Shown here piece after piece: positions 10,793 to 39,432 of a DNA stretch of 64,000 bases. Source of the stretch: Promethearchaeota archaeon (GTDB lineage: Archaea; Asgardarchaeota; Lokiarchaeia; Sigyniarchaeales; SOKP01); NCBI GenBank assembly GCA_048938005.1, contig JBHLMQ010000006.1, forward strand, positions 32,001 to 96,000, read 5' to 3'. How positions within the stretch are numbered: the stretch's first letter is position 1; every line of letters begins with the position of its first letter. Below the pieces are notes generated by a model. The model saw only the letters and a program-made list of their open reading frames with translations. It was not told the DNA's origin and ran no database searches. The position numbers were made by a program, and so were the translations under genes.

Positions 10793-13700
10793 TTAGAAAA
10801 AATATATGTAATAAATCTGTAGAGCAAGCAATATTCCAAATAGAACAAGCAAAATAATTAAAATTATAAGGGTATAAAACCTCCACTTAATTGAAATATT
10901 TTCACGTTTTTCTTTAAAACTTATATAGGGTAACAAAATAGCCCCCATTATCCAAATTGATATCCAAATAGTGAAAATATACCAAACCCATGTTATAAAA
11001 GCAAACAAAAGAACAATAATGCTACCCCAGCTGATGATTAAACGCAACATTCTACGCCGAAACATTAAATCAGCATCTTCAGATTTTTTAGAAGGCATAA
11101 TAGAGTAAAGTATCCCAAAAATAGGAAAAACTAGTACTATTGAATGAACCAACCAGAGTGTAAGTATGTATGTAAGGATACCAAAAAATATTGATACAAA
11201 GAGGCTAAATATTATCCAAACATATTGAAAATTTTTCTTTAGGAAACTGACAATTTTAATAAATGTGTTCTTAATTAAGATTTTGACTTTTCTAAAGAAT
11301 ATTGTAAGATAATCAACTAATTTATTGAAGAGTTCTTTTAATTCTTCCAAAAGGAAAATAAATGGATAAACCATAACTGTAATGATAAAGATTGCTAATC
11401 CTGCAATCCAAGATAAAGAAATAAAATATATGATTATGCTTAATAAAACAAATATTATTACCCAAAAGGTGAGAGCTAAAATAGAATGTTCTTTAAAGGG
11501 TTTTATCTTTATTCCTAAGAACATTATAAAAACTAGAGAAGAGATACTTAAATTTAAAAAGATATTGAAATCTGGAATAAAATTCAATAATAAAAATACA
11601 TCAATAGATAATAGACCTCCAATTATTAGAAATGAGTAAGATCTCAAGGATTTTCGTAATGTTTCTTTTAGAACGCCTATGAAGTTATCGATATATGTAA
11701 GAATAAACATAATGAAAAGAGAGGCTAATGTTAAATTAAGGATGAGAAATGGATTTAAACTAGCAAAATATAATGGCCATGTCATGAAATTGAGATATGA
11801 CAAGCCAATTAGAGAAACTCTAATTTTCTCTTTGTTAGAAACAACTAATTGCCAAAAAAGTAATAATTTAAAAAGATAAGCGAACTCAAGGATTAAGATA
11901 AAAATGATTATAGGTATAACTGTTAATAAAAATGTAATAGAAAAAATATTATAAAGCCATATTAAATAAGTTGATGTAAATATCATAATTAAAATCCAAG
12001 ACATTACTTTTACATAACGAGTAGCTATTCCTAAAAACTTTAATAGATAACTATCTATAATCATTAATAGATGGATTAAAAGGCTTAAAATCAATAGTAT
12101 CAATGGGATTGGAAATCCCTGCAAAAATAATGCTTGGAATATTGAAATGGATAATGTAATGTAGAAACCCGTGCCTATTGTATGTTGAACATATGTTTGG
12201 ATTTTATTAAGAGCATCTTTGGTATTAGGGTAAAAATCCTTTAATGAGGCAAAAAGAGAATAATTAGTATAAAATTGCATTAGTATAAAAATAAAGATTT
12301 CCAAACTAAGCAGAAAAGGATATTGAGATATCAAATTGTTTAAAATTAGAAATAACATTAATGAAATTGTAAAAAAGCTGATAGTATGAACTAATGATGC
12401 ATAACTTCTCTTTACTTTCTTTATTGAATAAATATCTAACAATGTTAGTACAAATAATATTGATACAGATACCATTATACTTTCAATCAAATCAAAGCCT
12501 AAAAATTCACTAACCAAGCCATACATGATGATGCTTATTTCAAAATATAATATTAATAGCATGAATGAATTTATCTTCGGTAAAAAATTAGGATATTTTT
12601 GCTTATCTATCATAATATTAATGTATTTAATAGAATTGAATGAAAAGCATATCTCTATTAATATTATTAAATTAATCATGAAAAAGTTTAAATAATCTAA
12701 TATTGTGAAGATGTAAAAAAGACTTATAGCTAATAATCCTTGAAATAGGACGAAAAGAATAAATTCAATCCAATTTTTCAAACGTTTCTCAATTTTGACG
12801 AAAAAGAAACTTAGAGCATATAATAGAATAGTAGCGTTTTGAAATAACAAAGAATAGTAGGGAAAACCTTTTAATCCTTCAAAAAGTAGTATTAGTCCAT
12901 CAGAGATTAAAGAAGCTATATAAAAGGAACTCCATATAAATGAATTATAAATAAGGATTAAACGAGCTGTAGAGATCTTCTCTTTCGAAATATCTAAGTA
13001 AGATAAAAAATGGAGAAAAATAAGATTTAAAAGAGAGATTGTTAATACTAAAAGGAAAACATTTAAATGAAACAAATAAAGGAAAAGAGACAACGTATTG
13101 CTGAATATAAACCACGAACATACAATAAATTTATTTCGAGTTGAATTAAATAACAAATAGAAATAATTTCTATCCATTAAGTAACTCTCAATAAATGCTA
13201 TTCCACTAACTACTAATAAAAAAGAATAAATTGAAATTGCTAAATTGATAAAAACTAAATATAGAAGAAGATTTACAGCTAAAGCAAAAGGAATTAAAAG
13301 ATATAAAACAAAACTAATTTTATTGAAATAACGGAGTGGATTTTTTATTTTTATATCTAATTTTGATTTTTCAATATATTTTAAACAGAATAAGAATAAA
13401 AATGGCCAAATTATTAAAAAATCACAAATCTGGTAAACTATCAAAATTTGAGTAAATAGAAATAGCTTTAATAGATTTGGCAAAATAATTGCAATAAATA
13501 AGGAAATACAAATTGAGTTTAATAGAAAACCTGTAAGATTGAGCCATTTAACTTGATTCTCATCCTCAAAAAGCTTCAATATGCTATTTCTTTTTTCTGG
13601 TGTTTCAGCCTTCACTAAATTTTTAAATATATTAATTAAAATCTGAAAAGAAATGAGATAAAGTATCGCCCAAGTTAAAAACCATAAGGGTTGAATAAAC

Positions 13701-16700
13701 TCAAATATTAAGAGCAATTCTAAAATAAGTGTTGATATTGGAATTGGAATACCAAACCAGAGCATATATCGATATTCAGTGAATATAAAGTATAAGAAAA
13801 CGATAAACACTGAAGAAAACGTAGAAATTAAAATAGCAGGGGATGCTTTAAATATGATGGAAATTAAGGATGTCACTGAGAGGGATGCTCCAACTGCCAC
13901 TATTAAATACGGAATTATTTTATTAATACGGAATTTCATTTTATAACGATTAAATATGAAAAAGGAACATCCACCAACGGTTAATGCTAATGAAAAAGCA
14001 AACAATAATAAGCCCGGAAAAAAATTGAATGTGTTGAATGTCAACCATGAAAAATTAAAAATTAGAATCCAAGAGAGGCATAAATTTATTATTCTTTTGG
14101 GTAATTGTGTGTATTTAGAGGAAAAAAGACTGAATCCAATCACAATAAGACTAATGTTAACAGAAAAAATGGGATCCAAAATTATAGAATAAAGAACAAA
14201 GTAGATTGTTAAGAAAATTCCTAATAAAGTTATGAAATATGCACCTATTAAGATAATGCCAATTGATCTTATATTTGGGAAAAACGAATAAACAATCAAA
14301 AATAAGCCAATAACTAATATGTCAATAGAAATTGTAATTTCTGGTAAGATGCCGATTTCCATCAGATAAAATAACAAAAATCCAGCATTAATAACAGTTA
14401 ATGGGAATATCCATAAAATCGAAATAATTTTCCAATATTTAAATATTGCCAATAATGGCATTAATAAGATTGCTGAAAACAGACCAAAAGATAAATTTGT
14501 TAATAAAATGTCAGTCGGAAATAGATATTGACTTACCCAATATAATAAGAATAAGCTTTCACCCCAAATAATAAAAACAATTAGAGAAAAGTATTTCTTT
14601 ATTTTACTATACACTACTGGCAAGAAAAATAAGGAGCAAATTATAATTGATATTATTAGTGAGCCATCTACACTAAAGGCTCCGAATTGTAATGATTTAG
14701 TTAAAACATCTATTCCTGTGAAACTTTGATAAATAATATAAAAGTTAACAAAGGGAAGAATATTCCAAGCATACCACCCAGATTTCCAAATCGCCCAAGA
14801 TATTCTCCACTGGTAAATACCAATTGAAAGATAATATAAGAAAACTCCAAAATTAATTGCAACTATTAGAGGAACAACAGATAAAAGGGGCAAATCCAAG
14901 GATGCGATGATAAGAAAGTATAAAAAGGTTGGAAAAGAGAGCACAATTGATATAAGCACGATATAAAAGGATATCTTTCTAAATCGTACTGGTGAATTAT
15001 TATATAGAAGAACAAATCCAAAACCAGTTATACTCATTGTTAGTGTAAAAGTTAGAATAGGATTATATAATCCAAAAATCAGATTGTTAAAAAACCAAGA
15101 ATATGACATAAAGCTAGTAATGTCAAAGATAGCTAAAACCACACATGGTCTAATAAACCATTTATAACGCTCATCTTTTAGACGATAGAAGAAAAATCCT
15201 ATGAATAATAAAAAAATTAGAATTGAGATTGTTATGTTATAGATAATGAGGATATTAGTAAACGTAATTAGAGAGACAAAAGACAAGAGAGAAATGAGAA
15301 AATATAATGCAAATTTCTCTAAATTGTTATTTTTTTTAATGTTTATTAAAATCGAGAAAAATAAAGCCCAACTCATAGTTAAGAGGGATATAATGACGAG
15401 AATACTAAATCCCAATATGACACTATACATGCTTAAAATCGCTAGAACTTCAATAAATGTTATGTAGCTTAGTAGAAAATACGATACAAATCGAAAAATG
15501 GGGATTATACTCCTTTGAGAAAGAATTAGCGCATATGATATTAATGTAAGAAAAATTGTAAGAATTGAGTTAAAGTAAAGAAGACTTACTAGTAATAACA
15601 CTGATGGTATATAAAATTGGTATAAAGTAAAAACAGATCTTTCTTCTACAGTTTTGTTAAATCTTAAAAAGGAATAATATAGAAATAAAATTACATTAAC
15701 CGTAATAACTGTTATCTGTAATAAAAGATTCTGATTAAAGAAAGGGATGATAGCTGTTAGATTGTATAAAATTTCTAAATATATGCTTAATATTGAAATT
15801 ATAAATGTTATTAATGTTATTTTCTTCATTAAGAGTTGATTTTTGGCGGAAATATACTTTAAATTCCTTAGAATGTAAAGACTCAGAGGAGTTAAAAGAA
15901 TAAAAGTTAATGAAAACAAAAATATTTTATTTACAATGAAGAATTGGGGAATATAGAATTCAATTAGAGAAAGTGTTAAAGTGCACAAGATTATCTTAAT
16001 AACCAACCATGCTGTTAACTCTAAAATAATCTTTAACTGCGTTAATTTAAATTCTATCAGATTATCAAAAACAATCACAAACAAAAGAAATATTGTTAGA
16101 AAAAACCCTATTAACATCGATATGTAAAATACCAAATTAGGTAAGATAAACGCAAATAAATTAGTTGAGAGAATCAAAAATGTAAAAGTAAATGATATAG
16201 AAACAACTATTCCATAAACGATTATATCATGTAAATAATTAAATATCTTTAATTCCGGAAAATAATCAGATGATAACTTTAGTGTATACATACTTAAAAC
16301 AAAAAACATAAATAAAGAACAACTTATTATTAAAAGGGTAAAAGGGTTTAGCGTTATTGTTACGATAAAGATTGATGCTACATAATAAGATAAAAGCACT
16401 GTAAATAAAAACCAAGAAATAATTCCAGATAATTTGAAGCGTTTAATATAACTCTCTTTTAATTTAATTCTTACACTTAATAATTCAGAAATCTTTAAAA
16501 AACTAAATAAAAGGAATATTGTTGTAGTTAATATGAGAATTATATTTAATTTTAATCCAAATCTCGTTAAATCTAAACTAATAATTGTTGGTAAAGAAAT
16601 AATCAAACAAGATAAGACAATAAAGTCATAAATCGTTAATTTTTTAATCCATTCTAAATTAAAATATTCTTTTTTATATGAATAATAGAAAAGGAAAAGC

Positions 16701-19327
16701 CACGAAAATAGTAATAAGATTAACGGTAAGATTATACCATAAAAAGTCCCTATTAATAAGAAAAAGGGATAATAAAATATCGTTGTTGCACTTATACAAA
16801 ATGCTATGATTATTTGTAATTTCAGAAAAAATCTTACTCTATTCTCCCTAATTTTGACTTTCTTAGATATATAAAAGATACTTGTAAAAATTAAAAATAC
16901 GATATATAGCGTACAATTTATTACAGTTATTATCAAAAAGATTATATCAAAATATAAATTCAAATAGAATAATTCCAATCCTATAATAGTTGGAATTAAT
17001 GATATCGTGGTTGATAATAATATACTATTTATGATAAGAGATTTAGATATAAATTTATGGTATAATCTTTTCTTTCTTAAATATAATATTGGAAGGTAAA
17101 GAATTATACTCGAAACTAACAGTGGAACTATTAAAACATAAAGAGTACCAATTGTTAACAATAAAAAATAGTAGAATACTATCACGGTTGTATATAGCAG
17201 AATAAAACTGTTTATCTTTATATAAAGACCTTCAGAAAAGATCTCTTTTTTTGAAAAGATGTTGATTATTCCACAAACTAATGCCAATGATAAATATGTT
17301 GAATAAATTATGTTCTGAACTAGCGAAACCACTTGAAAGACTTGAAAGACACTCAAAAATAATAAGCAAAATACAGAAAAAAGTTCCACTGCTAATAAGT
17401 AAGAATTGATTTTAACATATTTTTTAAATTTAGATTCGGTTATTCTTTCCAATTTCAAACCAAACTTTAATATAAAATAATAAAAAATAGACGTAAAAAG
17501 GCAATCTAACGCTATTATAATAAAGTATGTAGTAAATAGGGATATTATTAACAGAGATATAAAAAAATCAAATAAAAATATCCAAAGTGAAAAATAGCAG
17601 AATTTCAAGAAATCTTTTAGGGGATACACATGTAAGCCATAATTTAAGTAAAGAAAAAATATGAAAACAATAGGAAATAAAACTGATGATATCAATATTC
17701 CTTGTAGAAAAGGAATTAGTTCAATCAAGAAATAGGTTCTAAATAATATAAAAGCAATAACAAATAATTCGACTAAAAAGCTATTAAATAATACAAAGAT
17801 CCTGAATAATTTCGGGGATTTTCTGTAGAAGTATCTCACACCTAAAACATACTGAGAGATTAAAAAAATTATTGAAATTATTAATGAGTGTAAGAGAACA
17901 TTTGAAATGAAAATTAATAATGGGTTTGATGTAAAAGTTGTTGGAAAGAAATAATACATAATCATTGGAAAGAAATAATACATAACCAAAGAAAAACTAG
18001 CAACGGCTAGCAAATTTTGAAAGATTAGAATGTTATCTTTAAGGAAATAATCTAATTTAACAAACACTTGCAAAACCAAATACAAAGAAATGCAAAATAC
18101 CAAAAAATTCAATAAGATGGTCTCTATTGTAGGTAGTATTATTCCAAAAGAGATGTAAATCAAGAGAGCAATAGAGTTTAATAAAATTACATATTTATTA
18201 TACTTCTTTGAACATAGTTCATACTTCTGTTCATAGTGAAGTAGTATATAAATAAATGGAAGGATAATTAAGATTAAGTATGGAATTTGGATTAGAAAAG
18301 AGAACAATGTAATTAATAGAATTAAAATTCCAGATAAATATGAATTGTATTTTTGATATTTAATATTTAGTGGGGGAGGACTTTCCTTAGACTCTTCAAT
18401 TTTATCAGACTTGTCATATAGATCAAGTTTAGAACCATAATAATAATTAACATAGAACCTAGATTTAAAATAGAATAAAATGAATATCAGTGTTAAGAAA
18501 GAGCTATTTAGGAGTTCTGCTAAGAGATTAAATGTTATAACAATAACTAATGGCATTTGAACTAATATAAAGAAAATAAGGCTAACTAAGGAAATTACAA
18601 AATTTTTTTTAAATAATATTAAGTCTCTTAAAAATGGTTTATTTTTAATTATGGAATCTTTTATTCTTTTTATTTGACTCTTAGTACCTGTTAATGTGAT
18701 GATATAAAATAGTAAGTTTGTTATAAGAGCATAAAGCCAGGAGAAATTAGTGGAAGCAGTAAAAGCTAAAAAAATAATATGAGTAACATAATTAACGAAA
18801 ATTAAGAAATTATATGGCTGCTTAACCATTAATGCAAAATTTTCGCTATGTTTGAATTCTCCATCTTCTATATTAAAAAAATCAATTGGTTGGAAATAAT
18901 AATAGTAGTAAACAATGTTGAAAAGAACTGCATAACTAATTAATGGAAGGAAAATAAATGAATCAAATGGTGAACCAAGTATAAAAATAGGAGTTGTAAC
19001 AAATGAAAGGATAGAAATTAAAAAAAGGACATGAATTCTAGCAGTAAGATTATTCCTTTTGTTAAGAAAAAAGGGATTATTTCTGTATTTATCATAAGCC
19101 TTATAGAAAAAAAGCAAAGTAAACACAAAACATTCTACTGATAAAGATAATGTAATGAATAGACCAACTCGAGAAAAATTTAGGATTAAAAAAAGTACAA
19201 CTGCTGCTATTAAAGGAGCAATAATTAAATAAAATGAAAACCACCAAAATTTCTGAAGTAGTTCCGTAGCCTTCGTTATTCTTTCTTTTGAATTATCGGT
19301 AGTTTTTGATCTCATCGCCCAACACAA
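10793..19327 (-). CDS. Giant polytopic membrane protein of unknown function (2844 aa)
   Basis: Uninterrupted 8.5-kb ORF of hydrophobic helices separated by short Lys-rich loops; likely start ATG 19315. Confidence 0.85.
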   Translation of the reverse strand: MCWAMRSKTTDNSKERITKATELLQKFWWFSFYLIIAPLIAAVVLFLILNFSRVGLFITLSLSVECFVFTLLFFYKAYDKYRNNPFFLNKRNNLTARIHVLFLISILSFVTTPIFILGSPFDSFIFLPLISYAVLFNIVYYYYYFQPIDFFNIEDGEFKHSENFALMVKQPYNFLIFVNYVTHIIFLAFTASTNFSWLYALITNLLFYIITLTGTKSQIKRIKDSIIKNKPFLRDLILFKKNFVISLVSLIFFILVQMPLVIVITFNLLAELLNSSFLTLIFILFYFKSRFYVNYYYGSKLDLYDKSDKIEESKESPPPLNIKYQKYNSYLSGILILLITLFSFLIQIPYLILIILPFIYILLHYEQKYELCSKKYNKYVILLNSIALLIYISFGIILPTIETILLNFLVFCISLYLVLQVFVKLDYFLKDNILIFQNLLAVASFSLVMYYFFPMIMYYFFPTTFTSNPLLIFISNVLLHSLIISIIFLISQYVLGVRYFYRKSPKLFRIFVLFNSFLVELFVIAFILFRTYFLIELIPFLQGILISSVLFPIVFIFFLYLNYGLHVYPLKDFLKFCYFSLWIFLFDFFISLLIISLFTTYFIIIALDCLFTSIFYYFILKFGLKLERITESKFKKYVKINSYLLAVELFSVFCLLFLSVFQVFQVVSLVQNIIYSTYLSLALVCGIINIFSKKEIFSEGLYIKINSFILLYTTVIVFYYFLLLTIGTLYVLIVPLLVSSIILYLPILYLRKKRLYHKFISKSLIINSILLSTTISLIPTIIGLELFYLNLYFDIIFLIITVINCTLYIVFLIFTSIFYISKKVKIRENRVRFFLKLQIIIAFCISATTIFYYPFFLLIGTFYGIILPLILLLFSWLFLFYYSYKKEYFNLEWIKKLTIYDFIVLSCLIISLPTIISLDLTRFGLKLNIILILTTTIFLLFSFLKISELLSVRIKLKESYIKRFKLSGIISWFLFTVLLSYYVASIFIVTITLNPFTLLIISCSLFMFFVLSMYTLKLSSDYFPELKIFNYLHDIIVYGIVVSISFTFTFLILSTNLFAFILPNLVFYISMLIGFFLTIFLLFVIVFDNLIEFKLTQLKIILELTAWLVIKIILCTLTLSLIEFYIPQFFIVNKIFLFSLTFILLTPLSLYILRNLKYISAKNQLLMKKITLITFIISILSIYLEILYNLTAIIPFFNQNLLLQITVITVNVILFLYYSFLRFNKTVEERSVFTLYQFYIPSVLLLVSLLYFNSILTIFLTLISYALILSQRSIIPIFRFVSYFLLSYITFIEVLAILSMYSVILGFSILVIISLLTMSWALFFSILINIKKNNNLEKFALYFLISLLSFVSLITFTNILIIYNITISILIFLLFIGFFFYRLKDERYKWFIRPCVVLAIFDITSFMSYSWFFNNLIFGLYNPILTFTLTMSITGFGFVLLYNNSPVRFRKISFYIVLISIVLSFPTFLYFLIIASLDLPLLSVVPLIVAINFGVFLYYLSIGIYQWRISWAIWKSGWYAWNILPFVNFYIIYQSFTGIDVLTKSLQFGAFSVDGSLIISIIICSLFFLPVVYSKIKKYFSLIVFIIWGESLFLLYWVSQYLFPTDILLTNLSFGLFSAILLMPLLAIFKYWKIISILWIFPLTVINAGFLLFYLMEIGILPEITISIDILVIGLFLIVYSFFPNIRSIGIILIGAYFITLLGIFLTIYFVLYSIILDPIFSVNISLIVIGFSLFSSKYTQLPKRIINLCLSWILIFNFSWLTFNTFNFFPGLLLFAFSLALTVGGCSFFIFNRYKMKFRINKIIPYLIVAVGASLSVTSLISIIFKASPAILISTFSSVFIVFLYFIFTEYRYMLWFGIPIPISTLILELLLIFEFIQPLWFLTWAILYLISFQILINIFKNLVKAETPEKRNSILKLFEDENQVKWLNLTGFLLNSICISLFIAIILPNLLKLFLFTQILIVYQICDFLIIWPFLFLFCLKYIEKSKLDIKIKNPLRYFNKISFVLYLLIPFALAVNLLLYLVFINLAISIYSFLLVVSGIAFIESYLMDRNYFYLLFNSTRNKFIVCSWFIFSNTLSLFLYLFHLNVFLLVLTISLLNLIFLHFLSYLDISKEKISTARLILIYNSFIWSSFYIASLISDGLILLFEGLKGFPYYSLLFQNATILLYALSFFFVKIEKRLKNWIEFILFVLFQGLLAISLFYIFTILDYLNFFMINLIILIEICFSFNSIKYINIMIDKQKYPNFLPKINSFMLLILYFEISIIMYGLVSEFLGFDLIESIMVSVSILFVLTLLDIYSIKKVKRSYASLVHTISFFTISLMLFLILNNLISQYPFLLSLEIFIFILMQFYTNYSLFASLKDFYPNTKDALNKIQTYVQHTIGTGFYITLSISIFQALFLQGFPIPLILLILSLLIHLLMIIDSYLLKFLGIATRYVKVMSWILIMIFTSTYLIWLYNIFSITFLLTVIPIIIFILILEFAYLFKLLLFWQLVVSNKEKIRVSLIGLSYLNFMTWPLYFASLNPFLILNLTLASLFIMFILTYIDNFIGVLKETLRKSLRSYSFLIIGGLLSIDVFLLLNFIPDFNIFLNLSISSLVFIMFLGIKIKPFKEHSILALTFWVIIFVLLSIIIYFISLSWIAGLAIFIITVMVYPFIFLLEELKELFNKLVDYLTIFFRKVKILIKNTFIKIVSFLKKNFQYVWIIFSLFVSIFFGILTYILTLWLVHSIVLVFPIFGILYSIMPSKKSEDADLMFRRRMLRLIISWGSIIVLLFAFITWVWYIFTIWISIWIMGAILLPYISFKEKRENISIKWRFYTLIILIILLVLFGILLALQIYYIYFF

Positions 19328-19508: not shown

Positions 19509-20840
19509 TTATTTGAAATTAGGTAAATAACTTTTTTGTTGTTCAAACATTTCATTATAGATGTTTTCTGCCATTTCAAAACTCCCAACATTCGGATCAA
19601 TTGCTAAACAAGCAACAGCGATATCTTTAGATCTTTTTAAAACTGCTTCAACACACAAATCTTGGATTGACGCTTCAATGCGAAGTAACGCAGCAATATT
19701 TTTAGGTAAAGGACCTATATTAACACCATGAGCACCCTCCTTATTTATTACTGCAGAACACTCAATTATTGAATCTTGCGGCAAATTTTCAATAAGATTA
19801 TTGTTTGGAATATTAACAGCAAATTCATAGGAATTCTCATCATTAATGATTGCTTCTATTATTGGGATCGCTCTTTCTCCAGACAGTTCTTTTGATAAGA
19901 TTCCTTTTCTAGGATATCTTCCTCTTTTAAGCCTTTTATAATAATTACGGAATCTCTCATATATCATTTGTCCTTCATTGTCTATAAAATCAATCCAATC
20001 TATCATATCCTGGGTTTCTGTAAATTCCTCCCCAAATTGTAAGTATTCTCCAATATGATTATCCCCTACATATGGAAAATACCCAAATCTCTTATAAATT
20101 TCAAATGTAAGTGTAGAAAACTCGAATCTATCCTCATGTTCTTTGAAATATTTCATGGCATTAGTATTAAATGAAGGCATTAAATTCTTTCCTGTTAGTA
20201 AATCCTCCAAGCCTAATAAAAATGCAAAATGATTAAAACCTGCTACTTTCATTTTTAACTCTCTTATCGATTTTTTAAACATTTTAGGCAAATGTCTGAC
20301 CATAAACTCGATTTGATGACATAAACCAATAAACTTTAACTTTTTTACACTTCTTTTAATTGCTAAGCATACTCGAGATAATGGATTTGAAAAGTTGATG
20401 AAAAAAGCATTTGGACAAATTTTTTCGGCCTCTTTAACAATCTCAATAATTGGGGGAATTATTCTCCAAGCATGAAAAGTACCACCGGATCCTCCGCACT
20501 CCCCTAAAATCTGTGTTGACCCATATTTTCTTGGTATTTCATAGTCTTGTCGCCATAATTCCATTCGATTTCCAACTTCTATTGAATTAATTATGAAATC
20601 GGCGTTTTTAAGAGCTGTAGTTCTATCAATCGTTCTTTCTAGATTGAATTTATTATTTATTCTATCGTTTTCTACCATTAATAACTCATAAATCATTTCT
20701 AACTTCTCTTTATTAGTATCATGAAGTACTATTGTTGAACCTTCTAACACATCACTTAAATAAATATCATTAAACATTGGAGGTCCAAACGAAGTTGAAC
20801 CTGCTCCAATCAATACAATTTTCTTATTCATGTCGCTCAC
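19509..20840 (-). CDS. melA: Glycoside hydrolase family 4 (NAD+/Mn-dependent, alpha-galactosidase-like)
   Basis: IGAGSTSF, GECGGSGG, NFSNP, GLCH, AGFNH, GERAIPII. Confidence 0.85.
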   Translation of the reverse strand: MSDMNKKIVLIGAGSTSFGPPMFNDIYLSDVLEGSTIVLHDTNKEKLEMIYELLMVENDRINNKFNLERTIDRTTALKNADFIINSIEVGNRMELWRQDYEIPRKYGSTQILGECGGSGGTFHAWRIIPPIIEIVKEAEKICPNAFFINFSNPLSRVCLAIKRSVKKLKFIGLCHQIEFMVRHLPKMFKKSIRELKMKVAGFNHFAFLLGLEDLLTGKNLMPSFNTNAMKYFKEHEDRFEFSTLTFEIYKRFGYFPYVGDNHIGEYLQFGEEFTETQDMIDWIDFIDNEGQMIYERFRNYYKRLKRGRYPRKGILSKELSGERAIPIIEAIINDENSYEFAVNIPNNNLIENLPQDSIIECSAVINKEGAHGVNIGPLPKNIAALLRIEASIQDLCVEAVLKRSKDIAVACLAIDPNVGSFEMAENIYNEMFEQQKSYLPNFK

Positions 20841-20902
20841 AAACTAGTTTATTGGCAAATGATTTAATAATTTACTTATAAGTATAATTCAACAAATTCC
20901 GA

Positions 20903-20932
20903 TAAATGGGAAGTAAATGGGAAAGTTTATAA
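20903..20932 (+). promoter_or_regulatory. TAAATGGGAA direct repeat x2 followed by BRE/TATA (GAAAG-TTTATAA)
   Basis: Repeats near 20903 and 20914; TTTATAA at 20926-20932, about 20-25 nt before the structured region. Confidence 0.5.
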
Positions 20933-20950
20933 GGTTATTCTAACTTTTCC

Positions 20951-21181
20951 TAATTAATGAGTTTTTCACAGTATACTATGGATTATTGGTGTAAGATACA
21001 TATTACAGTATTACCTTTAATCCGTGGTATTAAGAGAGAATAAATCAAAAAATTTTGACCTCTTTCTTATAACTTTTACTGATTTGTTCTCTTTTATACT
21101 GCATCTCAATAATTATTATATGAAATAGGTCGTAATTAGATTGATCCTCCCAGTGAAGAATTCAATTAAAAATGGAGGTGA
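20951..21181 (+). ncRNA. Putative structured RNA / cis-regulatory 5' leader
   Basis: Stems 20973-20985/21018-21030 and 21032-21047/21080-21095 (two G-U pairs each), closing stems 20969-72/21098-101 and 20951-61/21105-15, loop pairing 21056-72/21116-32, anti-SD 21146-50. Confidence 0.6.
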
Positions 21182-21187
21182 AGTGTA

Positions 21188-21367
21188 CTGGAAAAAGAAT
21201 CAGATAAAATTGATCTGATATTAGATTATTATAAAGATTGGGATTCTTATAATGCTCCAGTTATGATGATGTTTAATGCGCCAAATGAGCTTTCAGAAAG
21301 TTTAGAGGCGGAGGATAGCAAAAAGTTGGAGTATTTAAGGAAAAAGTATCAAAATTCTTCGAAATGA
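21188..21367 (+). CDS. 59-aa small protein, probable CTG start
   Basis: GGAGGTGA at 21174-21181, 6 nt before CTG; reads (M)EKESDKIDLILDYYKDWDSYNAPVMMMFNAPNELSESLEAEDSKKLEYLRKKYQNSSK*; T-rich tract downstream. Confidence 0.65.
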   Translation: MEKESDKIDLILDYYKDWDSYNAPVMMMFNAPNELSESLEAEDSKKLEYLRKKYQNSSK

Positions 21368-21423
21368 TGACAATCTTTTTAGTTTTTATAATATAACTCT
21401 TTTTTTTTTATTTTTGTTATATT

Positions 21424-22599
21424 TTAAGTAAATAATGTTTCAATTCTTTCTAATGCTTGCCTAATCCGTTCTTCGGGTTGTGTTAAAGCAAATCTCACAA
21501 ATCCCTCTCCATATTGACCAAAACCTATTCCAGGTGTGATTATTACTCCTATATCAATTAATTTCTTTACAAAATCCATGCAGCTCATTTCACAGTACTT
21601 CTCTGGAATTTTAGTCCATACATAAAATGTTGCTTGAGGTTTGTCTGTTGTCCACCCTATATCATTTAAACCTTTAATTAGAATATCTCTCCGCTTCTCG
21701 TAAGTTTTTACTGTGCTTTCGACAACTTCTGGTTTTTTTTCTGATTTATATTCATTTAAACCTTTAATTACAGCTTTTTGTATAAAAATCGGACAACCCG
21801 AGTCGATCTGAGATTTGATCTTTCTTAACCCTTTTATAATATCTCTATTTCCTGCCACCCAACCACATCGGAATCCTGTCATATTGAACATTTTGGATGC
21901 ACTGTTAATCTCAATATGGTTTTGATCTATTTGTAATATGGATGGAGCAATATAATTACCAAATGTAAACTCTGAATAAGGATTATCATAAACAATAAAA
22001 AAATCATAATCCTCAGCATAATCCACTGCTTTTTTCAAGAATTCTTTTGGCATTATAGCACCAGTAGGATTATTTGGATAATTCAAATACATTAATTTAG
22101 CTTTTTTAAGAATTTTTTTATCAATTATATCTAAATCAGGCAAAAAATTATTTTCTTTCAATAAAGGCATTGAATATGGATTTGCATCACACAATTTTGT
22201 TGCTCCATTCTCATAAACTGGATATCCCGGATTAGGACAAAGAACTATATCTTCTGGATTAATAAAGGCTCTTGCAATATTCGCAACACCCTCCTTTCCT
22301 CCAATTACATTTGAAATCTCATCTTGAGGATCTAATTCCAGTTTAAATCTTACTTTATACCATCTTGCTACAGCTTCCCTAAAATCTTGTTCTCCCATAC
22401 TAGCAGGATAATTTTGATTCTCTGGAATTCTAACTTGCCTTATCATCTCGTTAATTATCAATTCTGGGGTAGTTAAATCAGGATCTCCAATCCCTAAAGG
22501 AATTAAATCAATCCGTTTTTTTCTTTTTTCTTCTAATAATTGCTCTATCTCTACAAAAATATATGTTGGGAGCCTTTTTACCCTCTCAGCATAATTCAT
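21424..22599 (-). CDS. Class I/II PLP aminotransferase, LL-diaminopimelate aminotransferase-like
   Basis: LGIGDPD, LNYPNNPTG, DNPYSE, SASKMFNMTGFRCG, GFGQYGEGFVRFAL. Confidence 0.88.
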   Translation of the reverse strand: MNYAERVKRLPTYIFVEIEQLLEEKRKKRIDLIPLGIGDPDLTTPELIINEMIRQVRIPENQNYPASMGEQDFREAVARWYKVRFKLELDPQDEISNVIGGKEGVANIARAFINPEDIVLCPNPGYPVYENGATKLCDANPYSMPLLKENNFLPDLDIIDKKILKKAKLMYLNYPNNPTGAIMPKEFLKKAVDYAEDYDFFIVYDNPYSEFTFGNYIAPSILQIDQNHIEINSASKMFNMTGFRCGWVAGNRDIIKGLRKIKSQIDSGCPIFIQKAVIKGLNEYKSEKKPEVVESTVKTYEKRRDILIKGLNDIGWTTDKPQATFYVWTKIPEKYCEMSCMDFVKKLIDIGVIITPGIGFGQYGEGFVRFALTQPEERIRQALERIETLFT

Positions 22600-39327: not shown

Positions 39328-39432
39328 TGGAGCCCCCGACGGGATTTGAACCCGCGACCTGCAGATTACAAGTCTGCTGCTATACCGCTTAGCCAAATAA
39401 TAAGTTCATAAATTATTTTAAGCTACGGAGGC
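39328..39432 (-). tRNA. tRNA-Thr(TGT) with encoded CCA and ~30-nt intron in the D-arm (about 39389-39418)
   Basis: Acceptor GCCTCCG/CGGGGGC, anticodon arm GCAGA-CTTGTAA-TCTGC, T-arm GCGGG-TTCAAAT-CCCGT; AT-rich hairpin insertion after GCT. Confidence 0.93.

Follow-up and report, generated by a model that had tools for sequence, protein, structure and literature searches.

The 64,000-nucleotide (nt) stretch of DNA analysed here, hereafter the window (Promethearchaeota archaeon, contig JBHLMQ010000006.1, positions 32,001 to 96,000), carries at 20955-21190 what is probably the 5' untranslated region (UTR) leader of the mRNA for a 59-amino-acid (aa) protein, belonging to an undescribed family of structured RNAs that control translation in cis. 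The family is likely confined to one family of Loki-type Asgard archaea, and the window copy would be one of its paralogues. The architecture is strand-specific and comprises a 5' strand (S1) with its closing helix (P1), two hairpins (H1 and H2), and a pseudoknot; it lies immediately 5' of a Shine-Dalgarno (SD) sequence and a start codon, and is reused before five kinds of gene, as expected of a regulatory RNA module. An earlier note on this DNA had proposed an undescribed archaeal riboswitch, thermosensor or translation-control element, or else a non-coding RNA accompanied by a linked peptide. The results on conservation, covariation, strand preference, Rfam, purifying selection on the peptide, and the near-cognate start support an undescribed archaeal cis-regulatory RNA with a linked peptide, but they do not support a choice between a riboswitch, a thermosensor, and a protein- or tRNA-binding element. 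The parts of the leader and its open reading frame (ORF), all on the + strand, are as follows.

20955-20969, + strand: S1, the 5' strand UAAUGAGUUUUUCAC; its partner is 21153-63 (P1) or, as an alternative, the SD and spacer (21178-86)
20959-69 : 21153-63, + strand: closing helix P1, with covariation
20973-21030, + strand: H1, a long hairpin with a 13-bp basal stem, its base conserved and its upper part freely variable
21031-21096, + strand: H2 hairpin of 16-17 bp, with arms 21031-47 / 21080-96 and a 32-nt loop
21056-21072, + strand: 5' strand of the pseudoknot, UGACCUCUUUCUUAUAA, within the H2 loop
21116-21132, + strand: 3' strand of the pseudoknot, UUAUAUGAAAUAGGUCG, complementary to 21056-72 at 15/17 positions
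21146-21150, + strand: pyrimidine tract CCUCC, anti-SD-like, immediately 5' of the P1 3' strand
21153-21169, + strand: P1 3' strand, GUGAAGAAUUC(A)AUUAA, resembling the SD and spacer sequence GUGAAAAA
21174-21181, + strand: SD sequence GGAGGTGA, in which GAGGTG is invariant in 71/71 sequences
21188-21367, + strand: 59-codon ORF, start CTG at 21188, stop TGA at 21365-67

Folding of 20940-21200 was compared with that of dinucleotide shuffles (n = 200). The + strand reaches a minimum free energy (MFE) of -63.3 kcal/mol (z = -3.95), equalled by one shuffle in 200, and the fold is thus better than that of shuffles, while the - strand is weaker (-49.1 kcal/mol, z = -2.37). The two adjacent hairpins that the earlier note had placed 3' of a BRE/TATA-like promoter can both be read, and their four non-Watson-Crick pairs, two per hairpin, are all G-U on the + strand; the preference for RNA that the note had drawn from these pairs agrees with the difference between the two strands. 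In the MFE fold of the + strand the SD is left unpaired. A repeat or mobile element of the MITE (miniature inverted-repeat transposable element) type would be expected in many copies; in the 3.7-Mb genome BLAST of the leader returns the self match only, and the covariance model described below finds two matches. No known RNA family had been recognised in the leader, and none emerged from Rfam 15: a search of 20500-21800 (E <= 10) returns four weak matches, none of them in 20903-21190 and none above 21 bits or near a gathering score, and a search of eight related loci (E <= 1) returns one microRNA match of 22 bits, against a gathering score of 87.

The leader is conserved in 20/24 other genomes of the same genus, with 70-86% identity. 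The loci fetched yielded 71 distinct leader sequences, which were aligned with MAFFT (alignment A2), and P1, H2, and the pseudoknot were tested jointly against 500 shuffles. In the three helices 82.1% of 3057 cells are paired, double changes occur in 26/45 pairs, and 0/500 shuffles match the observed values on any of five measures; controls with the 3' partner shifted by 1-3 columns give 46-55% paired cells. Double changes are found in 10/11 pairs of P1 and in 13/17 pairs of the pseudoknot, the complementarity of which had been noticed earlier from the window's letters; in H2, paired in 94.5% of cells, they are found in 3/17 pairs, and six pairs never vary. Duplex energies point the same way: the value for cognate strands is -16.4 kcal/mol in the pseudoknot, against -12.7 for non-cognate and -8.1 for shuffled ones, and -9.7, -7.75, and -4.5 kcal/mol, respectively, in P1. 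H1 is unalignable by sequence, with 69 distinct versions among the 71 leaders; nevertheless, 67/71 H1 sequences fold to a single hairpin, with a mean z of -4.06 relative to dinucleotide shuffles.

The domain had originally been described as enclosed by an outer stem, 20951-61/21105-15. Such a stem exists, 10 of its 11 positions being able to pair, but its comparative support is weak: tested as 20955-61:21105-11, it is paired in 72.6% of cells, a value reached by 14/500 shuffles, and gaps make up half of the cells, the outer stem being absent from the second genus. Its 5' end probably falls upstream of where transcription starts, and P1 competes with it for the same 5' strand. As judged from the alignments, P1 is the better supported closing helix. 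Two further pairings would cover the SD. Pairing of S1 with the SD and spacer (21178-86) is possible in 87.1% of cells, with no covariation and with 165/500 shuffles scoring as high; this pairing and P1 compete for the S1 strand. The occlusion of the SD by CCTCC at 21146-50, also proposed earlier, stands as far as complementarity goes, CCUCC:GGAGG being retained in 92.8% of cells versus 59-72% in slid controls, but not as a covarying helix. The invariance of the SD accounts for the lack of covariation in both cases.

The distribution of the family was traced in two ways. An IUPAC pattern of the H2 arms, with one site per genome, is present in 48/53 genomes of the window's genus, 35/42 of the second genus, 1/1 of a third, and 4/5 of a fourth, and in 0/33 genomes of the family's other nine genera; the reversed control pattern is found in none of the rows listed. 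A covariance model built of H2 with its flanks (121 positions, pseudoknot not included) matches 110/151 genomes of the order, with 109/131 further genomes of the family and 0/19 genomes in three sister families. In the window's own genome the model finds two sites, the window leader (94 bits) and C65:14833-14942 (- strand; 50.8 bits, E = 3e-5), the latter directly upstream of a gene for leucyl-tRNA synthetase (LeuRS) of the archaeal type (leuS; TIGR00395, 546 bits, N-terminal 479 residues, far above other families). Of the two LeuRS genes in this genome, only that of the archaeal type carries the leader; the other, a bacterial-type leuS (C97:~170717-172078, - strand), has none. A 19-codon upstream ORF behind the leader of the archaeal-type leuS was considered and rejected: it is not conserved in relatives, and the leuS start lies at the usual distance.

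Most genomes of the window's genus give two covariance-model matches. The 41 second sites examined (40 fetched and that of the own genome) are followed by archaeal-type leuS (22), small ORFs of 36-68 aa (16), and a gene for an FrhB/TrmB fusion (3), with the start codon 66-104 nt after H2. Two related kinds of small ORF are represented, one ending in E(K/E)xIAW-stop and the other, similar to the window protein, in GYL(W/R)xKYxKxSK. In the fourth genus the element is located about 135 nt upstream of leuS instead of a small ORF, and this leuS is bacterial-type (TIGR00396, 658 bits, above cutoff). A diverged copy precedes a bacterial-type leuS also in one genome of a fifth genus (G080); it retains S1, both hairpins, the pseudoknot, and a P1 of 11 bp, all with compensatory changes as read by eye. 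No archaeal-type LeuRS was found in the four fourth-genus genomes and G080 at E <= 1e-30, in a search that had no positive control, and the leader in these genomes sits on the sole LeuRS found. The gene contexts are five in number: two types of small ORF, archaeal-type leuS, bacterial-type leuS, and the FrhB/TrmB fusion. In all 117 loci inspected (71 + 5 + 41) an ORF on the same strand starts after a short, fixed interval, and no other synthetase gene is present behind the leader in these loci.

Several loci have an organisation of their own. The fusion, 484 aa long with 4Fe-4S, FrhB/FdhB-like, and TrmB helix-turn-helix parts, is located behind the leader at L236 89-1543 (+ strand) and also in L202, L221, and L224, in some genomes of two genera. 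In L238 a 45-aa ORF ending in DLAW-stop lies behind the leader (196-333, + strand), followed by a 56-aa window-type ORF (582-752, + strand) and then by a convergent aminotransferase gene. Other genomes carry two leader and ORF units in tandem.

Family-wide covariation was assessed in alignment A4, composed of 99 model matches from 96 loci, three spurious reverse-strand rows included. For H2 together with 12 core pairs of the pseudoknot 85.1% of cells are paired, 20/28 pairs show double changes, and 213 double-change cells are observed against 95 expected; 0/500 shuffles reach the observed values on all measures, and slid controls give 43-59%. H2, across the family, is paired in 92.9% of cells and has double changes in 10/15 pairs, for instance AU:66/CG:29 and CG:46/UG:36/UA:15. 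In the pseudoknot core double changes occur in 9/12 pairs, and these are independent of the fitting, as the pseudoknot is outside the covariance model. For the pseudoknot duplex of the 41 second-site leaders the cognate value is -23.1, compared with -16.7 for non-cognate and -10.2 for shuffled strands. Clear individual P1 helices are present among these leaders, and in several of them S1 pairs best with the SD itself.

The 59-codon ORF, for which the earlier note had pointed to CTG as the only SD-spaced start, is, by its pattern of substitutions, a real protein-coding gene under purifying selection. The median ratio of nonsynonymous to synonymous substitution rates (dN/dS) is 0.28 (411 pairs among 31 same-genus sequences), and dS is 0.46 in the first 24 codons versus 1.25 in the remainder, so that, besides being a real gene, the ORF is subject to an extra constraint at the nucleotide level at its 5' end. 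When the start codon is taken as the first in-frame NTG 4-14 nt after GGAGGTGA, the 71 sequences have CTG in 26 cases, TTG in 24, ATG in 8, and GTG in 1, with only ACG available in 12; the spread over CTG, TTG, ACG, and ATG places the CTG of the window within a conserved pattern of near-cognate starts. A few species with CTG carry also ATG or ATA one codon upstream. The product is small and acidic, with a basic tail. In a six-frame search it is found in 87/151 genomes of the order, including 47/52 of the window's genus, 36/42 of the second genus, and 1/1 of the third; two further matches are weak (E of about 0.006-0.008). Neither this peptide nor the two related small ORFs match a Pfam or NCBIfam family, an ESM Atlas look-up of the peptide gave no usable match, and public databases carry it as "hypothetical protein" only, from metagenome bins labelled Promethearchaeota or Lokiarchaeota. 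The idea that the small ORF is a remnant of a LeuRS N-terminus was abandoned: hhalign of the 71 small proteins with 16 LeuRS N-termini gave a probability of 0.35%.

Two smaller features are found around the start of this ORF. A small hairpin, AUCAGAU-N7-AUCUGAU, is located at 21199-21219 (+ strand), 11 nt into the ORF; two relatives have AUCC/GGAU in place of AUCA/UGAU at its four inner pairs. At 21172-21207 (+ strand; stop TAA at 21205-07) a run of 11 codons, MEVKCTGKRIR, starts from an ATG that overlaps the SD; it is in a different frame from the conserved ORF and is not kept in relatives.

The leader and its ORF occupy a 583-nt gap between a GH4-type glycosidase gene and a DapL-like aminotransferase gene. 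The surrounding features are listed below.

19509-20840, - strand: GH4-type glycosidase gene
20903-12 and 20914-23, + strand: direct repeat, two copies of TAAATGGGAA, just 5' of the BRE/TATA
20922-33, + strand: BRE/TATA-like promoter AAAGTTTATAAG, a nearly invariant block in 20 genomes
21400-21409, + strand: T10 run, kept as a T-run in 20/20 aligned genomes
21424-22599, - strand: DapL-like aminotransferase gene

In the genus alignment the promoter block ATGGGAA-N4-ATGGG-AAAGTTTATAA is near-invariant, its repeat, ATGGGAA-N4-ATGGG, invariant; then come about 20 variable nt, after which invariance sets in again from TAATGAGTTTTTCAC. The usual archaeal distance between the TATA box and the start predicts that transcription begins near 20955-20959, and the renewed invariance at TAATGAGTTTTTCAC fits this position. 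The direct repeat is likely a transcription-factor site. In many genomes of the second genus an inverted ATGGGAA-N6-CCCA(C/T) takes its place, and this change from direct to inverted repeat at the promoter suggests a dimeric DNA-binding regulator. A regulon for the ATGGGAA repeat was sought and dropped, as none of eight matches in the own genome was convincing. The T10 run is likely the archaeal terminator of the leader and ORF transcript, and there is no T-run of at least 5 between 20970 and the end of the ORF. Of metatranscriptomes, only two runs contained a small share of the sequence. A 288-nt contig from a relative extends over 20972-21258 (covering 20972-21048 and 21174-21258 in a single record), a weak indication that leader and ORF are on one molecule.

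Gene order at the locus is kept, with a large membrane protein gene and/or the GH4 gene pointing away from the leader and ORF on one side and the aminotransferase gene converging on them on the other. The aminotransferase is downstream of the leader and ORF in 32/34 same-genus loci and in 13/13 wider loci of two genera, and the same convergent aminotransferase is found 3' of small ORFs in several other genera as well. A 2844-aa ORF (10793-19327, - strand), nearly all of it made up of hydrophobic helices, keeps its synteny with the leader locus in two genera. Elsewhere in the window, an Rfam tRNA-model match at 39339-39395 (- strand; C31:71339-71395), with 49 bits over model positions 8-63, is probably a partial or intron-bearing tRNA; ARAGORN reports no tRNA in the window, and many tRNAs of this genome carry introns.

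A mode of action can be proposed from these pairings. As covariation shows, S1 closes the domain through P1 by pairing with the strand just upstream of the SD, and the H2 loop pairs with the purine-rich downstream strand to form the pseudoknot; the folded domain would decide whether the SD and the weak CUG, UUG or ACG start are free. S1 appears to be anti-SD-like, and the 3' strand of P1 to mimic the SD and spacer (GUGAAGAA versus GUGAAAAA); S1 could pair either with that strand or with the SD and spacer itself, and the CCUCC tract beside P1 could also cover the SD. With such alternatives at hand, an effector stabilising or destabilising the P1 and pseudoknot fold would switch translation. As to the effector, the presence of the module before two evolutionarily distinct types of LeuRS, with no other synthetase seen, points to the leucine-charging system, and a tie to tRNA-Leu, LeuRS or leucine may tentatively be suggested; we infer uncharged tRNA-Leu or LeuRS itself to be the most likely among them. 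It is conceivable, if somewhat doubtful, that the family is an archaeal functional counterpart of the bacterial T-box and of feedback by aminoacyl-tRNA synthetases (aaRS), sensing whether tRNA-Leu is charged (or else free LeuRS or leucine) and setting the translation of LeuRS and of small Asgard-specific proteins.

Several observations weigh against this interpretation or temper the evidence for it. The shuffle controls for covariation ignore the relatedness of the sequences, and the H2 counts in A4 are biased towards H2, to which that alignment was fitted. The H2 stem hardly varies within the window's subfamily, an uncommon feature for metabolite aptamers. The automated P1 test on the 41 second-site leaders gives no signal (cognate -6.5, non-cognate -6.2, shuffled -6.0). 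Both SD-occluding pairings, S1:SD and CCUCC:SD, lack covariation, and the switch logic is therefore conjectural. The gene set is not purely leucine-related, as it includes small proteins and the FrhB/TrmB fusion, and in the own genome neither ARAGORN (9 intronless genes, more with introns) nor the Rfam tRNA model (25 matches) yielded a tRNA-Leu. Finally, the RNA contig is that of a relative and shows no ends, and such libraries can contain DNA.

Among other explanations, a small-molecule riboswitch, in which S1, H1, H2, and the pseudoknot would form an aptamer for a metabolite (leucine or an unrelated one) and stabilisation of P1 or the pseudoknot would gate the SD, seems unlikely. The leader has two of the generic features of riboswitches, namely a conserved, covarying, structured domain and the occurrence of the same domain before several different genes; a pseudoknotted domain is reused before several unrelated genes, and its closing helix adjoins the SD as in translational riboswitches. 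However, aaRS genes are, by general knowledge, atypical targets of amino-acid riboswitches, no biosynthesis or transport genes are present among the 46 non-window-type contexts inspected, and the long helices are near-invariant in sequence within the subfamily. Still less probable is a constitutive structural 5' UTR or an RNA thermometer, which would only stabilise the mRNA, or melt with temperature and uncover the SD, and would need no specific effector. The pairing of the U-rich S1 with the SD and spacer in 87% of cells, the conserved anti-SD tract, and the fact that no effector was found are compatible with it; nevertheless, thermometers of the ROSE and fourU kinds are simple imperfect stems over the SD or start codon, while here the SD is free in the MFE fold and the domain is a multi-helix, pseudoknotted one of 230 nt. 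Such an architecture, with a covarying pseudoknot and five kinds of gene behind it, is far more elaborate than known thermometers, and the association with LeuRS arose twice.

The remaining alternatives separate the element from the translation of the ORF altogether. A stand-alone non-coding RNA acting in trans, with the downstream ORF separate or merely co-transcribed, would suit an autonomous RNA domain that recurs in different places, but is very improbable given the fixed short same-strand distance to the ORF start in every locus inspected, the absence of T-runs up to the end of the ORF, and the RNA contig joining leader and ORF. Hardly any credit can be given to an element acting as DNA, such as palindromic protein-binding sites or the remnant of a mobile element: the inverted repeats do exist in the DNA, yet the folding has a G-U-dependent strand asymmetry, covariation goes through G-U intermediates, the pairing in the pseudoknot has no palindromic logic, and there are two copies only per genome. 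The preferred reading is that of a cis-acting leader controlling translation of the gene behind it.

To our knowledge, few cis-regulatory RNAs are known in archaea, and none was found described for Asgard archaea. The titles and abstract openings of the literature searched contain no description of such a leader in this group, and no Rfam 15 model matches it. What is new is a pseudoknotted leader family supported by covariation, which has some 110 genomic instances in five gene contexts. It offers concrete material for work on how translation is controlled, on initiation at codons other than AUG, and on the regulation of synthetases in the lineage nearest to eukaryotes, and it marks the proteins of 36-68 aa, together with the second LeuRS of these organisms, as a candidate co-regulated set. 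If the reading of tRNA-Leu charging were true, no earlier sensor of this kind would be known from archaea, and this one would belong to the prokaryotes most closely related to eukaryotes.

T-box riboswitches are bacterial leaders that sense tRNA in front of aaRS and amino-acid genes, and they include a translational type that sequesters the SD. The present leader resembles them in being a structured leader of more than 200 nt with a long 5' hairpin, in preceding an aaRS gene as well as other genes, and in ending beside the SD. It differs in several respects: neither the window region nor the eight related loci match RF00230, and the core is a hairpin-loop pseudoknot in an archaeon, with a small ORF as its commonest context and with tRNA binding putative. 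The window leader, moreover, has no UGGN (the T-box motif pairing with the NCCA end of the tRNA) after H2, where its subfamily has UUUUA or UUAAC; UUGG does follow H2 in many second-site leaders. In T-box leaders a specifier codon for the cognate amino acid lies in an internal loop of Stem I. The triplets UUA, UUG, and CUN are frequent in the AU-rich loops of the present leaders, no always-unpaired position for a Leu codon being found among them, and one candidate specifier stretch in H1 of the leuS leaders appears by eye to fall on paired positions. Autoregulatory aaRS operators, of which that of E. coli thrS is the type, are similar in that an mRNA structure beside the SD of the synthetase gene could be bound by the synthetase; the leader module described here differs in preceding non-synthetase genes as well.

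H-type pseudoknot riboswitches, such as SAM-II, preQ1-II/III, and fluoride, likewise have a hairpin loop pairing with a 3' strand near the ribosome-binding site, with purine-rich and pyrimidine-rich strands. Their stems, however, are of a few bp, compared with 16-17 bp here, where there are also an extra long hairpin and a closing helix, and no similarity of sequence or model is seen. The leuA-Halobacteria RNA motif (RF03001) is an archaeal cis-regulatory candidate tied to leucine metabolism; its sole match lies inside the ORF (21304-21360; 14.1 bits versus a gathering score of 47.9, E = 6), and the leader is not a member. The glutamine riboswitch of cyanobacterial gifB, reported in PMC6212724, is alike in that a structured 5' UTR controls a small regulatory protein (IF17), but it is an unrelated, bacterial RNA with a known ligand, glutamine. 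Membership in none of these classes is supported. T-box leaders and aaRS operators are the nearest functional analogues of the leader family, followed by the H-type pseudoknot riboswitches.

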